IMG/VR virus record: IMGVR_UViG_2703718825_000004
Source of the DNA: a virus
Taxonomy: Duplodnaviria > Heunggongvirae > Uroviricota > Caudoviricetes
Strand: one strand, 5' to 3'
DNA: 8,067 nucleotides
The translations under genes were made by a program, and so were the position numbers. Below the pieces are notes generated by a model that had not been told where the DNA came from, did not search any database, and saw only the letters and a program-made list of their open reading frames with translations. Below are positions 1 through 7,218 of the stretch, piece after piece. Numbering within the stretch: the first letter of the stretch is position 1; each line of letters opens with the position of its first letter.

Positions 1-32
1 GGTGGCGAGGGATTTCTCCCCCGCCTGGTCTC

Positions 33-188
33 TTACTCCTCAGGTTCGTAAGCTGTGAAGACAGCGACCTCCGTCTGGCCGGTTCGGATTCGTACCTCGC
101 AGAGGTCTTTCCTCGTTACCAGTGCCGTCACTATGACGGTTAAACAGATGACGATCAGGGCGATTAACATCGCCTTTTGCTGCTTCAT
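33..188 (-). CDS. hokD: Hok/Gef-family type I membrane toxin (HokD/RelF-like), 51 aa
   Basis: Minus-strand translation MKQQKAMLIALIVICLTVIVTALVTRKDLCEVRIRTGQTEVAVFTAYEPEE matches, from memory, HokD/RelF and the Hok-family pattern (one TM helix, RKDLCEV...TGQTEVAVF...YE). AAGGAG Shine-Dalgarno lies about 9 nt upstream of the ATG at 188-186. Imperfect GC-rich hairpin in the 3' region (about 3-29). Sequence identity is recalled, not searched. Confidence 0.85.
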   Translation of the reverse strand: MKQQKAMLIALIVICLTVIVTALVTRKDLCEVRIRTGQTEVAVFTAYEPEE

Positions 189-245
189 AACCTGCTTCTC
201 CTTGCCTTTCGGCGCGTAAGAGGCTAACCTACGTTTGTGAAGCAT
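33..245 (-). CDS. Mok-like in-frame upstream reading frame overlapping hok (70 aa)
   Basis: Same frame as hok, starting at ATG 245-243 (MLHKRRLASYAPKGKEKQV then MKQQ...). This resembles the MokC/HokC arrangement in which mok is an N-terminally extended frame of hok. No convincing SD before this ATG; inference. Confidence 0.4.
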   Translation of the reverse strand: MLHKRRLASYAPKGKEKQVMKQQKAMLIALIVICLTVIVTALVTRKDLCEVRIRTGQTEVAVFTAYEPEE

Positions 246-431
246 AGATTGGGCCTCAGATTAATGTTAAGCGTCTTGCAGGACGCGTAATGTTAACTGG
301 GGCTTTTCTCTGTCTGCCTTACGGTGGCATGCCCGAGGCAGACAGCCTCAAGCACCCGCAGCAATTCTACTTAACTCTCGCTTTACAGCAAACCGTTTTG
401 CCCGATATGGGAATTCCCATACGGAATGAAT

Positions 432-536
432 TCAGTTCCCCAGGCGCTCCATCAAAAACACAACCAGGCAGTAAACACCCACAACAGCAATAACAGCCAG
501 AGCGCCTTCCATTACCAGTGAAATATCATCCGACAT
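432..536 (-). CDS. 34-aa small hydrophobic (single-TM) protein, unknown function
   Basis: Below the 60-aa cutoff of the ORF track. ATG at 536-534 is preceded by AAGGGAGGG (strong SD); stop TGA at 434-432. Translation MSDDISLVMEGALAVIAVVGVYCLVVFLMERLGN has an acidic N-terminus and one predicted TM helix. Sigma70-like promoter upstream on the minus strand (about 600-570: TTGCTA-N17-GTATAT). Confidence 0.35.
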   Translation of the reverse strand: MSDDISLVMEGALAVIAVVGVYCLVVFLMERLGN

Positions 537-645
537 ATTCCCTCCCTTGGTGTGAATCCCGGCGAACGTTTTTACCCCCACCGACAAATAACATATACTA
601 GAAAAGCAATAGCTATAGCAACGCCTGCAAATGCATCTGGCCGGC

Positions 646-1209
646 TCATTGGTTCTCCCCCTGTGTCGCTTCTACTGCGATCTGACTGGCGTATTCGTTA
701 ATGGTAACGATAAGTTCTTGCTCGGCCTCATCCAGACAACTACCGATACCTCGCCTGTCCACTTCAGAAGCATCGAAATCTGCACGAAGCCTGGCGACCT
801 TCAGGATTGCGGACAACACCTCATCAGGGATTGCCGGAGAGTTGGTTGACGTTTCCGAGATTATCCGAAAATTATTGGTTGACGAACCCTTATTTTCCCG
901 AAAGTTTCCAGCCTGAAGCATGGCGGCGCGGTGACACCAGATAATCCAGCCAAGCGCCATATCCCATGCCATGTATTCTCTATCGCCATTTTTTGCTCTG
1001 CGGCGATCTACAGATTCCCCGAAACGCTTCTCCATAAATAATTCATAGGCTGCCCGTTCATCCGATACTGATGCCAGTGATGCCAGTGCAATTTTTAATG
1101 CGGTAAGCATGTTGTTTTGATCTTCATCGAGTCCGAACGGTATTTCATCCCGTGATGACTCAATTCCGGTAATCGTGTACTGTAGCCATTCTTTGGTTAA
1201 TTCAGTCAT
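646..1209 (-). CDS. Hypothetical phage protein, 187 aa, unknown function
   Basis: Intact ATG-initiated ORF. Preceded by an AT-rich region (1261-1335) and two hairpins in the 5' leader. I do not recognise the protein family. Confidence 0.6.
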   Translation of the reverse strand: MTELTKEWLQYTITGIESSRDEIPFGLDEDQNNMLTALKIALASLASVSDERAAYELFMEKRFGESVDRRRAKNGDREYMAWDMALGWIIWCHRAAMLQAGNFRENKGSSTNNFRIISETSTNSPAIPDEVLSAILKVARLRADFDASEVDRRGIGSCLDEAEQELIVTINEYASQIAVEATQGENQ

Positions 1210-1218
1210 TTTTCACTA

Positions 1219-1234
1219 CCGCCCTTTCGGGCGG
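1219..1234 (-). promoter_or_regulatory. GC-rich hairpin (CCGCCC-GAAA-GGGCGG on the minus strand) between an AGGAGA motif and the start codon of the 187-aa gene
   Basis: Perfect 6-bp stem with 4-nt loop seen directly. It sits 9 nt upstream of ATG 1209 and just downstream of an SD-like AGGAGA (1240-1235). A second hairpin GAGGG-N9-CCCTC lies at about 1246-1264. Confidence 0.3.
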
Positions 1235-1335
1235 TCTCCTGATGTTCTGAGGGTGCAGGAATCCCTCCGGTTAAGGATTTAATAAAAATCATTTCTGATT
1301 TAAATTTTCAGTGTTTAGTTGTTGGTTTATAGCCT

Positions 1336-3160: not shown

Positions 3161-3823
3161 TCAGACAAAACCGGCCGCCTTCCGGCGCTCATATTCCTGT
3201 TTCAGCAATTCAATTGGCGTTGGCCCTGGCGGGCGTTTGGGTGCTGCCAGTTGTCGCCGGACTGGCGGAACACTGAGGCCATTACCAACATGCTTTGCCC
3301 ATTTCGTCAGCTGCCTTTCCACAAGCCGTTTTAACTCCCCTTCGGTCATCTGGCGCTCAATCCCCTTTGAACGCATCTCGAGGCAAATGTGGTACAGCAC
3401 CGGCTGTGGCCACGGGTATTTATCACTCCCGTCGTACCGCCAGGATTCATTCCTCCAGCGACGGTATTCCTCCATCACGGCATCCACCGTCAGGCCAAAT
3501 GGATTTGCCCCGCTCTCCGAAATCAACGCCACAAACTCAGCCAGATCCGGAGGCCACGTTTCACCCGCCCGGCAGCGGTCCATGCACCGACGGCAGATCT
3601 GCCGGATTTGCTGTTCAGTCATCGCGCCAATCTGAGCAATCCAGAGTTTCGACGGCGCAGCCCCGTTCTTCTGAGTCCAGCGGTTCGAATACACCTCCCC
3701 CATAAGCTCCCACAGCTTCCAGGCCGTTTCCGTTGCTGATAAATCCGTTTTCACGTTCCCACTGTTCGCGTGCAGCCCGGATTTCCTGAACTGCCCGTGA
3801 TGCGGTGCCACCTGGTGCTGCAT
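3161..3823 (-). CDS. Lambda-P-like replication protein (DnaB helicase loader)
   Basis: Translation is co-linear with lambda P as recalled (e.g. [13 protein letters not shown] vs PSPGQFVAWCREE; [16 protein letters not shown] vs YPWKSNAHYWLVTNLYQNMR; [13 protein letters not shown] vs TDAELRRKAADEL). Start is uncertain: ATG 3823 has SD AAGGGGG but overlaps the O-like gene by 209 nt; alternative ATGs at 3703 (SD TGGGAG) and 3622 (8-nt overlap with the O-like stop). Confidence 0.7.
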
Positions 3824-4720: not shown

Positions 4721-5146
4721 TCAATGCACGACAACAGCATTACCAGGCTGACCACCACTGTTAGTCAGGGTGCCCCAGGCGATCGCCGCTGCGACAAAAT
4801 CATCCACATCTTTCACCAGCCGATCCCTCCGTTCGACGATCTCACGGTAATATTCAGAGCTGTGACTGCGCATACGGGCCACCAGCAGAGGCGGCATTGC
4901 CTTTTCGATCGCCGGTAACAGAGCCTGAATTTTTTCAACAGCATCAGGGGTGTCTTTATCCAGCCAACGGAAAATTTTCTGGGTATTACGAGCCAGGGCT
5001 TCCGGATGGCTGTCGTCGTACAGTTCCGGGAACGTCATCCCCAGCTCGAAATAAGTCCGGGCTATTTCAGCTGCAGGAACTTTCTCACCGTCCGGATAGG
5101 CCCAGGCATTGATCGCCATGCGGATGTGCTCATGTTTGATTTTCAT
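4721..5146 (-). CDS. ydaT: YdaT-family protein (CII-position regulator of Rac-type prophages), 141 aa
   Basis: Starts MKIKHEHI and ends VVVH, as Rac YdaT does from memory. ATG 5146-5144 overlaps the Cro-like stop (ATGA). Sits in the cII position between cro and O. Confidence 0.75.
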   Translation of the reverse strand: MKIKHEHIRMAINAWAYPDGEKVPAAEIARTYFELGMTFPELYDDSHPEALARNTQKIFRWLDKDTPDAVEKIQALLPAIEKAMPPLLVARMRSHSSEYYREIVERRDRLVKDVDDFVAAAIAWGTLTNSGGQPGNAVVVH

Positions 5147-5370
5147 GAATCCCCCTTTCCTTCGCCCTGAGTGGTATCCTTCTTTTTGTAAAGTTCTGGG
5201 TTCAAAGATAATTTCCCCTTGGAGTATGCAGCAGCTTCCGCAGCCCTCCCCTTCGGAACTATTTCACCAGGACGCTTACGCCACATGTAAATAGCTTCGC
5301 GGGTTATCCCATAAAAATCGGCAACCCTCTGAACAGAACCAAAAAACTGGACAAGTTCATCAACTCGCAT
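5143..5370 (-). CDS. Cro-like HTH regulator (DicC/YdaS family), 75 aa
   Basis: Divergent from the CI-like repressor. SD GGAGGT 4 nt upstream of ATG 5370. Pattern L..FGS...VA...GI...IY.W.....VP.GRA shared with DicC as recalled. Confidence 0.8.
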   Translation of the reverse strand: MRVDELVQFFGSVQRVADFYGITREAIYMWRKRPGEIVPKGRAAEAAAYSKGKLSLNPELYKKKDTTQGEGKGDS

Positions 5371-5464
5371 TTTACCTCCTAAATCTAAGTATTTTTAGAT
5401 TACAAGATAATTTTTTTTAGGTCAATGCAATCTAAAATAATTTATATTCAATTTGCAGGAGAAA
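5371..5464. promoter_or_regulatory. OR-like divergent promoter/operator region between the cro-like and cI-like genes
   Basis: 94-bp AT-rich intergenic region. Inverted repeat AATCTAAgtatttTTAGATT at 5382-5401, and a second inverted repeat TTTTAG-N11-CTAAAA at 5415-5437. -10-like TATATT at 5443-5448 for the cI-like gene; TTGACC-N17-TAATCT on the minus strand for the cro-like gene. Confidence 0.6.
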
Positions 5465-6112
5465 ATGATGGAAAGCCTTGGCATCAGGCTTAAGAGACTT
5501 AGAAAAGATAAGGGGCTGACCCAAGTAGAACTGGGTAAGCTTTCAGGCGTGACTGGGGTTACTATAGGGTACTGGGAGAAAGATCTAAACGAACCAGGTA
5601 GCAAAGCTCTAAGTAAGTTAGCCCAGGCATTAGGAACTACTGAGTCCTATCTCCTATATGGAGTATCGTCTCCTGAATTATCTTTTGTACAAAGTACCTC
5701 AGGCACCAAGATCCCCTACCTTTCGTGGGGTGAGGCGATTTCTTTCCTAATCTTAAAAGGAGAGAAAACAATGGGAAATGTCGATAGGATCACCACATTC
5801 TTTGATGTCGAGGAAGGTGATTTTGCCGTTTCAATGCCTGATGACACAATGCATAACCCATCAGGATCACCGAGTATCCCAGTTGGTGCTACTGTGATCC
5901 TAAGGCCAGGAGAAAGTTATAAAAATGGCAGCATCGTCGCTGTAATAGTTCCGGATCCGCTTAAAAATGAACCATCTATGACTATAAAGAAATTAGTTAT
6001 TGATGGGAAGCTTGTGTATTTAAGCCCTCTCAATCCACGCTATCAGTCATCCTTACTTACACCAGAGTGTAAAATTGTTGCCGTAGCAAAAGGTGTACAG
6101 TTCAACTTATAA
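5465..6112 (+). CDS. Lambda-CI-like prophage repressor (N-terminal HTH_XRE plus C-terminal LexA-like S24 peptidase domain)
   Basis: N-terminal LGIRLKRLRKDKGLTQVELGKLSGVTGVTIGYWEK is a classic XRE HTH. C-terminal region has the S24 Ser motif (AVSMPD) and Lys motif (TIKKLVIDGKLVYLSPLNPRY, close to lambda cI [20 protein letters not shown]). The ORF track starts at TTG 5453; ATG at 5465 or 5468 follows AGGAG at 5457-5461. Confidence 0.9.
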   Translation: MMESLGIRLKRLRKDKGLTQVELGKLSGVTGVTIGYWEKDLNEPGSKALSKLAQALGTTESYLLYGVSSPELSFVQSTSGTKIPYLSWGEAISFLILKGEKTMGNVDRITTFFDVEEGDFAVSMPDDTMHNPSGSPSIPVGATVILRPGESYKNGSIVAVIVPDPLKNEPSMTIKKLVIDGKLVYLSPLNPRYQSSLLTPECKIVAVAKGVQFNL

Positions 6113-6802: not shown

Positions 6803-6855
6803 TTTCTGGTGACGTTTGGCGGTATCAGTTTTACTCCGTGACTGCTCTGCCGCCC
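6803..6855 (+). ncRNA. dicF: DicF small regulatory RNA (ftsZ-targeting sRNA of the Qin-type dicB operon)
   Basis: Sequence TTTCTGGTGACGTTTGGCGGTATCAGTTTTACTCCGTGACTGCTCTGCCGCCC matches the 53-nt DicF sequence as I recall it, followed by a T5 tail (6856-6860). It sits immediately upstream of dicB as in K-12. Confidence 0.85.
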
Positions 6856-7029
6856 TTTTTAAAGTGAATTTTGTGATGCGGTGAATGCGGCTGAGCGCAC
6901 GCGGAACAGTTAAAACCAAAAACAGTGTTATGGGTGGATTCTCTGTATCCGGCGTTAATTGTTAACTGGTTAACGTCACCTGGAGGCACCAGGCACTGCA
7001 TCACAAAATTCATTGTTGAGGACGCGATA

Positions 7030-7218
7030 ATGGAAACGTTATTACCAAACGTTAATACGTCTGAAGGTTGTTTTGAAATTGGTGTCACTATCAGTAACCC
7101 TGTATTTACTGAAGATGCCATTAACAAGAGAAAACACGAACGGGAGTTATTAAATAAAATATGCATTCTTTCAATGCTGGCCCGTTTACGTCCGATACAA
7201 AAAGGATGCTGGCAATGA
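7030..7218 (+). CDS. dicB: DicB cell-division inhibitor (MinC-activating), 62 aa
   Basis: Translation METLLPNVNTSEGCFEIGVTISNPVFTEDAINKRKHERELLNKICILSMLARLRPIQKGCWQ matches DicB as recalled. SD GAGGA 7 nt upstream of ATG 7030. The ORF-track frame 6925..7218 is an upstream extension crossing the DicF terminator. Confidence 0.9.
   Translation: METLLPNVNTSEGCFEIGVTISNPVFTEDAINKRKHERELLNKICILSMLARLRPIQKGCWQ

Follow-up and report, generated by a model that had tools for sequence, protein, structure and literature searches.

A palindrome upstream of a lambdoid prophage hok locus as a probable fossil of a KilA-N/BstA-like gene

Gene remnants at the mosaic junctions of lambdoid phages, such as nin-region morons and pseudogene fragments, are short pieces of genes lodged between two modules; they are present or absent among otherwise homologous prophages, and their break-points differ by lineage. 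Palindromes are known hot spots of breakage and template switching, and an imperfect palindrome, itself a template-switch hot spot, can be repaired or have one arm copied onto the other. In E. coli, quasipalindrome template switching and palindrome-stimulated deletion are established mechanisms, described for laboratory reporters and recognizable by complementary arms, changes on both arms and end-points at the base of the hairpin. Palindromes are also found inside protein-coding genes, as in the case of the Rickettsia palindromic elements. Coding palindromes have further been reported from the mitochondria of Nematomorpha (PMC6649704) and, as far as the available account of these goes, share with the Rickettsia elements an in-frame inverted repeat that is tolerated in the protein.

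Loci of the BstA abortive-infection family contain a short DNA element that overlaps the coding sequence and acts in cis or in trans (PMC8585504). In phage BTP1, this element, denoted aba, is 63 bp long, is located at the start codon of bstA, contains direct CCCGCC repeats and confers DNA-based self-immunity (Owen et al. 2021, PMC8585504); it maps to positions 683-745 of the BTP1 locus in our set (L641).

The element analyzed here, a palindrome next to a prophage hok locus, resembles each of these systems in part. Like the cis elements of hok/sok (tac, fbi, the Sok target and the mok translation region), it adjoins a bona fide hok/sok locus; unlike them, it is located upstream of the promoter, outside both the transcribed hok mRNA and the conserved module. 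Like Rho-independent terminators and REP-like 3' stabilisers, it can form a stem-loop of 9-11 bp just past a stop codon; unlike these, it lacks a U tract, is not rich in GC apart from three G-C pairs and originates from a coding region of the opposite strand. It shares with other lambdoid remnants the position of a short gene piece between two modules and the patchy presence among prophages with lineage-specific break-points, but differs from them in that the piece is exactly the hairpin core of the parent gene, with the break-points at the edges of this core. The parent gene has a KilA-N N-terminus (PF04383) and a BstA-type C-terminal domain; unlike the aba of BTP1, the element is located at codons 58-66, is palindromic and is also present in KilA-N genes that lack the BstA domain. 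In contrast to the reporter quasipalindromes, with which it shares complementary arms, both-arm changes and end-points at the hairpin base, the pattern in KilA-N genes is shared by phages from several bacterial phyla and compels amino acids to change in a coordinated way. Unlike the Rickettsia elements and, within the available account, those of Nematomorpha, it keeps one fixed ancestral position in one domain family, with a conserved core GGGAATTCCC (G-I-P), instead of arising by multiple insertions.

The palindrome and its setting

The stretch of DNA analyzed (hereafter the window; 8,067 nucleotides, IMG/VR record IMGVR_UViG_2703718825_000004) matches a lambdoid prophage in E. coli O157:H7 (NZ_AP018488.1) with 100% identity. 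The early-right operon is encoded on the minus strand and consists, in this order, of cro, a cII-like gene, O, P and several nin-region genes, followed on the same strand by a 25-aa ORF (649-572), a 34-aa ORF (536-432) and hok/mok/sok. The features around the palindrome, in window coordinates, are as follows.

33-188, minus strand: hok reading frame, 51 aa, intact, annotated HokD in NZ_AP018488.1
33-245, minus strand: mok reading frame (open reading frame)
183-357, minus strand: hok mRNA leader and Sok antisense region, Rfam RF01794 (sok/hok-leader), 114.9 bits, E 2.7e-26
364-391, minus strand: predicted hok promoter, read from the sequence, with -35 TTGCTG at 391-386, a 16-nt spacer, -10 TAGAAT at 369-364 and a start at about G357
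388-401, no strand: second near-palindrome GCAAAACGGTTTGC, overlapping the hok -35, part of the conserved hok module and also present in 933W
402-424, no strand: extended imperfect palindrome CCGA-TATGGGAATTCCCATA-CGG with A405 unpaired, a 1-nt deletion derivative of a perfect 24-mer
403-434, plus strand (coding sense of the parent): putative fossil of a KilA-N/BstA-like gene, GAT ATG GGA ATT CCC ATA = D-M-G-I-P-I, then decayed and frameshifted (...ELIQSF...)
406-421, no strand: perfect 16-bp palindrome TATGGGAATTCCCATA, the only one in the window, with an EcoRI site at 411-416
432-536, minus strand: hydrophobic small ORF of 34 aa (MSDDISLVMEGALAVIAVVGVYCLVVFLMERLGN), WP_001278460.1, hypothetical protein, stop codon TGA at 434-432
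572-649, minus strand: hydrophobic small ORF of 25 aa (MSRPDAFAGVAIAIAFLVYVICRWG), paralogous to the 27-aa ORF located immediately next to the hok promoter in loci of the 933W type

The 5' end of the hok mRNA is placed at about G357 because the match to the Rfam sok/hok-leader model starts there. With this leader/Sok match and an intact hok ORF, the locus qualifies as a hok/sok type I toxin-antitoxin system; its promoter segment (364-391) is conserved also in hok loci without the palindrome. Neither the 34-aa nor the 25-aa small ORF has a match in Pfam or PHROG. The 3' DNA of these tandem ORFs resembles that of the 27-aa ORF (MTWPEAF...CRWG) of the 933W-type loci, and the upstream neighbour of the hok family seen here is almost always a small membrane peptide. 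The near-palindrome GCAAAACGGTTTGC is conserved in hok loci both with and without the 16-mer; it has some likeness to a PurR/Cra-type box but does not fit, the spacing of the half-sites being wrong.

A previous reading of this DNA from the sequence alone had pointed to a perfect 16-bp palindrome between the small ORF and the hok promoter, and this is indeed what is present at 406-421: TATGGGAATTCCCATA starts 10 nt past the TGA (434-432) and ends 14 nt upstream of the -35, with its center near -56.5 relative to the hok start. The accompanying statement that such a palindrome is unlikely by chance in 8 kb is too strong, given that at least one perfect 16-bp palindrome turned up in 229 of 2000 shuffles that preserved the dinucleotides of the window (11.5%), with a mean of 0.12 per window. 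Chance alone does not exclude the palindrome, which is meaningful because of the homology described below. There is no second copy of the TATGGGAATTCCCATA core in the window, even when 3 mismatches are allowed, and the sole other perfect palindrome of at least 14 bp is CGGCAGATCTGCCG (14 bp, 3591-3604), located just 3' of the O/P gene overlap, within the P-like ORF. The window contains two EcoRI sites (GAATTC) 17 bp apart, one at the center of the palindrome (411-416) and the other in the remnant flank (428-433).

Relatives of the locus carry a perfect 22-24-mer, (C)CGATATGGGAATTCCCATATCG(G), and the perfect 24-mer CCGATATGGGAATTCCCATATCGG is found in PPompW-type and other prophages. The inner spacing is 18 nt in 112 loci, as opposed to 17 nt in the window and altogether 11 loci; the window allele is therefore a minority form, derived from the ancestral 24-mer by a 1-nt deletion. 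The predicted RNA hairpin has a folding energy of -12.8 kcal/mol for the window allele on either strand (z -2.9 on the minus strand) and of -20 kcal/mol for the perfect 24-mer. No Rfam family matches the palindrome in the window at E values up to 1.

The immunity region of the window is Qin/dic-like. It includes a match to the DicF sRNA (6804-6855, plus strand, 76.7 bits, E 4.6e-16) and, after it, a sub-threshold STnc100-like match (6853-7062, plus strand, 35.7 bits, the gathering score being 47). The divergent cI-like (5453-6112, plus strand) and cro-like (5143-5370, minus strand) genes are separated by AT-rich overlapping inverted repeats (5378-5448, AATCTAAG...TTAGATT), which probably serve as immunity operators and have no sequence relationship with the 16-mer.

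Distribution among hok loci and homology to KilA-N/BstA-like genes

Most of the hok loci in the phage collection, including hokW of 933W, VT2-Sakai and many Stx phages, match the window over positions 1-399 only, whereas PPompW-type phages match it over 1-446, palindrome included, with 87.6% identity; the block common to the window and the PPompW-type hok loci extends from approximately 399 to 446. In the alignment of the window with 933W, the window differs by a 36-nt block, CTGAATTCATTCCG-core-TCGGGC, between the end of the small ORF and AAAACGGTTTGC. We also scanned IMG/VR for the 5' end of the hok mRNA and obtained a palindrome-blind sample of 120 loci, 107 of them new and 13 already known from the palindrome scan. 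The palindrome is present in none of the 103 new loci that have enough upstream sequence to score, so that about 13 of the 120 hok leaders come from palindrome-carrying loci and about 107 (roughly 90%) from loci without it. The commonest alternative upstream of hok is the 27-aa ORF (MTWPEAF...CRWG), with its stop codon 5 nt from the -35; in another arrangement, a homologue of the 34-aa ORF abuts the promoter. The palindrome-less loci include hokW-sokW of Sp5/933W, a working type I toxin-antitoxin system (PMC8621323). Because roughly 90% of the sampled loci, this functional one among them, lack the palindrome, hok does not need it. The end of homology at 399, the absence from most hok loci and the working hokW-sokW together place the palindrome outside the hok/sok machinery, and it is not part of the conserved hok/sok module.

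In related prophages, the motif is kept, and the outcome that would have counted against the sequence-only reading, a unique motif without conservation, is thus not what is observed. The module consisting of the small ORF, the palindrome and hok (at least 80% query cover) is found in 669-673 of the 5426 complete E. coli genomes, and the intact BstA-like gene, which is rarer, in 137; these numbers do not represent independent events because O157:H7 is heavily over-represented. In the genomes with the module, a query spanning 396-660 matches a median of 3 places per genome, often in several prophages of the same genome.

An exact search of IMG/VR for the palindrome returned three kinds of matches, namely hok-linked copies, copies inside ORFs, where the palindrome reads D-M-G-I-P-I, and the intact gene of the L070 type. 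The hok-linked copies (hereafter orphans) follow the 34-aa ORF, are located 124 nt after paa/adfO (PPompW) or follow an ORF6N-type gene, and there is one deletion variant (L092). For the orphans in two non-hok contexts (L094 and L005), there was no BLAST match in the phage collection. In an exact search of genome contigs, the matches listed come mostly from unrelated phyla and fall into chance occurrences, KilA-N coding sequences and a Firmicutes repeat. This repeat, AAGGG-TATGGGAATTCCCATA-RTAGAATTTRTGCGGGAGTAYAAATTCAGTGCTGGCTAGACA, is present in L132, L153, L168, L193, L217 and approximately 30 other loci (metagenome-assembled genomes of Bacilli, Clostridia and Mollicutes), often where a contig ends and beside a gene that begins with MRIRN/K; it is unrelated to hok, has no match in Rfam and looks like the end of a mobile element.

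In E. coli phages of the L070 type, an intact KilA-N/BstA-like gene is encoded divergently from hok, with its palindrome approximately 545 bp from the hok 5' end. An intact gene is also present in Escherichia phage vB_EcoS-613R10 (ON470590.1), annotated as KilA-N domain-containing protein, the label that public records give to the parent protein (257 aa, L070:4411-5184). This protein matches the Pfam KilA-N family (4.3e-27) and contains a BstA-type C-terminal domain (PHROG 6287, 'BstA abortive infection', 2.7e-89; PADLOC BstA, 3.2e-21 for the C-terminal half). The palindrome comprises the codons D-M-G-I-P-I-S of this gene, in the context (A)-D-M-G-I-P-I-S-(E). It qualifies as a coding-embedded palindrome as defined in this analysis, that is, one with the core GGGAATTCCC and complementary arms at these codons.

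The nucleotide homology extends beyond the palindrome into the flank on its small-ORF side. The antisense strand of the parent gene aligns with the orphans of the PPompW class at 31 of 33 nt (94%), with class 4b at 39 of 44 (89%) and with L254 at 37 of 44 (84%), always in the same orientation relative to hok, and the 22-24-mer of the orphans does not differ from the allele carried by the BstA-like gene of E. coli. The window is tied to this homology through the orphan classes, the link being its 87.6% identity to the PPompW class over 1-446. The orphan covers approximately codons 58-73 of the parent (DMGIPISELIQSFK), and the stop codon of the 34-aa ORF (434-432) falls inside the fossil. Only about 10 KilA-N codons are left and the element is therefore a fragment, not a gene; accordingly, there is no domain-encoding ORF in the window, and the plus-strand ORF at 290-493 is spurious, overlapping the hok promoter and leader. 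The possibility that a palindrome arose here by chance, without any history, can point to the 11.5% of shuffled windows that contain one, but is refuted by the 33-44 nt of KilA-N homology, which reach past the palindrome, the presence of the same element in many prophages and the identities over 24 nt, and we give it virtually no credence.

The break-points of the orphan copies are located at the palindrome. On the hok-proximal side, the classes share ...CCCATATCGGG and then diverge, and in L092 the 22-nt non-palindromic flank is lost exactly up to the other edge of the palindrome. A comparable picture is seen in Calothrix (L150:2600-3100), where an intact KilA-N gene is accompanied by two relics, one with upstream codons only and the other with downstream codons only, and the homology of each ends at the palindrome. 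Decay is apparent among the orphans, namely the 1-nt deletion in the window and the mismatches and shortened loop of L254 and the L438 type. The inner 16-18 bp are identical in at least 6 junction classes with differing flanks, in a set that is biased by its partial collection through exact-palindrome search; flank-anchored searches do recover variants, among them two with a C-to-T change, so that the hok-sense strand is left with a G.U pair, and one pair that has turned from A-T to G-C on both arms. The comparison of core and flank diversity among orphans is confounded by unrelated upstream sequences and by flanks fixed by the search pattern.

Several loci contain more than one GGGAATTCCC-core palindrome. 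In L101:5860-6260 (same as L179), an orphan palindrome is located 371 bp upstream of an intact KilA-N gene, L005:5700-6070 carries two non-coding copies 335 bp apart, and in the GC-rich L102:13850-13910 and L219:2600-2670 two copies are 36-37 bp apart. Together with L150, these loci contain several palindromes with differing arms within 36-460 bp, which suggests repeated gene replacement or breakage at the palindrome.

On balance, we consider it probable that the palindrome in the window is an inert fossil of a KilA-N/BstA-like gene at a palindrome-promoted rearrangement junction and not a control site of hok. What is directly observed is the homology and its orientation, the intact gene in its arrangement with hok in other phages, the lack of the element in most hok loci and the missing terminator features. 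The scenario we propose is that a KilA-N/BstA-like phage gene once resided upstream of hok, divergent from it; rearrangements with end-points at the edges of the palindrome would then have removed the rest of the gene and left the hairpin-forming core (approximately 32 bases, about 403-434) stranded between the small hydrophobic ORF and the hok promoter, with the window copy subsequently losing one more base. The nature of palindromes as hot spots of breakage and template switching probably explains the location exactly at a module junction, and quasipalindrome self-correction may account for part of the persistence of the orphans. We infer that the element has no selected role today in the expression of hok or the small ORF. 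In practical terms, neither hok operator nor terminator is a suitable annotation for the palindrome, which would instead mark a rearrangement scar left by the loss of a KilA-N/BstA-like defence gene.

A palindrome embedded in the coding sequence of KilA-N genes

A gene remnant of this kind is in itself ordinary; of more interest is the strongly covarying and seemingly undescribed palindrome inside KilA-N coding sequences. In the KilA-N genes of phages of Proteobacteria, Cyanobacteria and Bacteroides, which belong to a family of DNA-binding and abortive-infection genes, a perfect palindrome of 22-28 bp with the core GGGAATTCCC (G-I-P) is found at fixed codons (L070:4411-5184, L557-L559, L633-L640, L642-L645 and L651-L652; alignment A3). 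Among BstA-like genes with 78-100% amino-acid identity, synonymous sites in the flanking codons vary freely and two synonymous sites in the 4-nt loop vary as well (GGA/GGG, ATT/ATC), whereas the four in the stem never do. Homologues at 53-59% identity have a perfect palindrome at the matching codons but with different arms, as in the following alleles.

CCGATGCGGGAATTCCCGCATCGG, reading DAGIPAS
GAGGTCTATGGGAATTCCCATAGACCTC, reading SMGIPID
GGTCCATGGGAATTCCCATGGACC, reading SMGIPMD
TCGAAACGGGAATTCCCGTTTCGA, reading ETGIPVS

The palindrome is present also in KilA-N genes that were chosen by protein similarity alone from unrelated phages, for example, a Manatee Spring podovirus, Planktothrix PaV-LD, Microcystis Mic1, a Bacteroides LoVEphage, Synechococcus S-SRP02 and a Nodularia phage; it is absent from more distant KilA-N homologues with insertions in this loop. 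In approximately 18 of 28 KilA-N genes, the hairpin is among the most stable 39-nt windows of the gene (top 10 of 160). Across 16 KilA-N sequences, 80% of the cells of the named helix are paired, compared to 33-47% for slid registers, and 10 of its 12 pairs are changed on both sides; the covariation is 0.487, compared to 0.17 in shuffles, with none of 500 shuffles reaching the observed value. At the nucleotide level, no part of the E. coli gene is more conserved than the 60-nt stretch with the palindrome, which has 76-95% identity (mostly 88-95%), compared to 56-86% elsewhere in the coding sequence. The amino acids of this KilA-N domain loop are exchanged in coordinated pairs (D..S to S..D; M..I to A..A or T..V), and complementarity is therefore the dominant constraint on it.

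The identity between BstA-like genes shows no sharp change on either side of the palindrome, which speaks against a recombination switch at this site. As to the strand that forms the hairpin, the comparison of G.U with A.C mismatches points to the one opposite the KilA-N coding sense in a few cases (L642, L645 and two of the orphan variants), but 29 coding flanks have no clear bias. No Rfam family matches the palindrome in the intact KilA-N/BstA-like gene, and literature searches returned no description of palindromes or hairpins in KilA-N genes, or of the core sequence in phages, and nothing on BstA with KilA-N after 2021. The coding-embedded KilA-N palindrome therefore appears to be undescribed.

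As judged from the sequence pattern, the KilA-N palindrome could be maintained either by selection, acting on a hairpin, a cruciform or a protein site, or by self-perpetuation through template switching. Either would explain why a remnant keeps the palindrome; template-switch self-perpetuation would also explain why break-points cluster at the palindrome edges. In the case of selection, this would be a previously unrecognized cis element in a family in which DNA-based self-immunity is already known; in the case of template switching, it would provide a clean natural example of a mutational mechanism shaping a protein sequence.

Operator, hairpin and cis-element readings

The sequence-only reading had suggested that the palindrome could be a binding site for a dimeric regulator or a hairpin ending the small-ORF transcript; the present analysis lends support to neither. 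An operator acting on the hok promoter from about -56.5 would be compatible with the perfect dyad symmetry and with a position typical of upstream activator or repressor sites. However, most hok promoters have no palindrome, although they are nearly identical from -35 to +1, and the element is not conserved with the promoter at a fixed spacing: the distance to the -35 varies among the classes from 13 to approximately 40 nt, and the loop varies as well (AATT, CATT, ACTT, AAT), which would change the spacing of the half-sites. There is also no further copy in the window and no likeness to the putative cI/cro operators at 5378-5448, and a simpler origin of the palindrome has been demonstrated. 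Given, in addition, that homology with 933W and VT2-Sakai stops at 399, that about 13 of 120 hok leaders come from palindrome loci and that hokW-sokW works without the element (PMC8621323), a regulator site for hok is very unlikely. Reading by eye gave no consensus match to a CRP, LexA or PurR-like operator or to a nut site. As for the hairpin suggestion, a stable stem-loop can indeed form 10 nt past the stop codon (z -2.9), but the absence of a U-run, already remarked upon in that reading, extends to all orphan classes. Directly past the stem, the minus strand reads GCAAAACGG and the plus strand AAUGAAUUC, and a terminator scan of window positions 1-1300 found no intrinsic terminators. It is improbable that the stem-loop acts at the 3' end of the small-ORF mRNA, be it by terminating transcription without a U tract, by causing a pause or by blocking 3'-exonucleases, in which capacity it would stabilise this mRNA or insulate the hok promoter and the 5' folding of the hok mRNA from read-through. 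Such a role would agree with the predicted minus-strand hairpin (-12.8 kcal/mol; -20 kcal/mol for the perfect 24-mer), with its position, which in every orphan class is 10-124 nt past a gene of the same strand and ahead of the hok promoter, and with the two independent C-to-T variants that leave G.U pairs on the minus strand, although two such cases match the chance expectation (p about 0.25). Within a 143-nt context, however, the hairpin is one of several competing folds (ensemble z -0.86), and in 933W-type and class-3 loci the small ORF runs into the -35 without any hairpin, so that insulation of hok is not needed. Under the fossil reading, a minus-strand read-through transcript would form at most the -12.8 kcal/mol stem-loop, which is probably incidental.

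By analogy with the BstA systems, in which self-immunity depends on short cognate DNA elements of the locus itself (mapped for neither BstA-Ec nor BstA-Kp; PMC8585504), the orphan might have kept a cis role of the KilA-N/BstA-like palindrome, for instance, as a DNA or RNA site that such proteins recognize. As a decoy or immunity site, it would then enable this prophage to replicate in cells that express a cognate BstA-like abortive-infection protein. The strong constraint on the KilA-N-embedded palindrome, with its both-sided pair changes, covariation, frozen synonymous sites in the stem next to variable ones in the loop and location in the most conserved 60-nt stretch of the gene, argues for this possibility, as does the identity of the orphan core across junction classes. 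Against it, the covariation could come from template-switch correction without any function, the window copy of the palindrome has suffered a 1-nt deletion, and the 22 nt of non-palindromic coding flank in the orphan are what would be expected of an ordinary gene remnant. Moreover, the sole mapped aba, that of BTP1, is located at the bstA start codon with direct CCCGCC repeats and is non-palindromic, and the bstA gene of BTP1 has no palindrome at the KilA-N position. We accordingly regard a retained cis role as unlikely. Identity of the orphan with an aba element as such is rejected in view of the absence of both the start-codon position and the terminal CCCGCC repeats, and of the lack of the palindrome in BTP1 bstA. 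There is likewise only a small chance that the 22-28 bp KilA-N palindrome has a function of its own as a nucleic acid, in the form of a hairpin, cruciform or protein site, and that the orphans upstream of hok are retained because they still work. If so, the palindrome would serve self-recognition, self-immunity or autoregulation of KilA-N/BstA-like proteins, and the orphans upstream of hok in hundreds of E. coli prophages could be, for example, decoys against a cognate abortive-infection protein. The interpretation of the palindrome as an inert gene fossil, which we prefer, has to accommodate several observations that run against it. The two G.U-compatible changes and the one compensatory pair among orphans, as would be expected of a conserved hairpin, are weak hints, and so is the identity of the inner 16-18 bp across at least 6 junction classes, in the partly search-biased set. 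The palindrome of the parent gene may, as its sequence pattern suggests, have a function of its own that the orphan could retain. Finally, the orphan module is commoner in E. coli than the intact gene (approximately 669 compared to 137 genomes, O157:H7 being over-sampled).

Where phages still have the BstA-like gene in intact form, their hok ORF (L070:3763-3888, minus strand) is altered at the C-terminus (41 aa, ...RIRTGRRRL), and hok may be decaying where the KilA-N gene survives.
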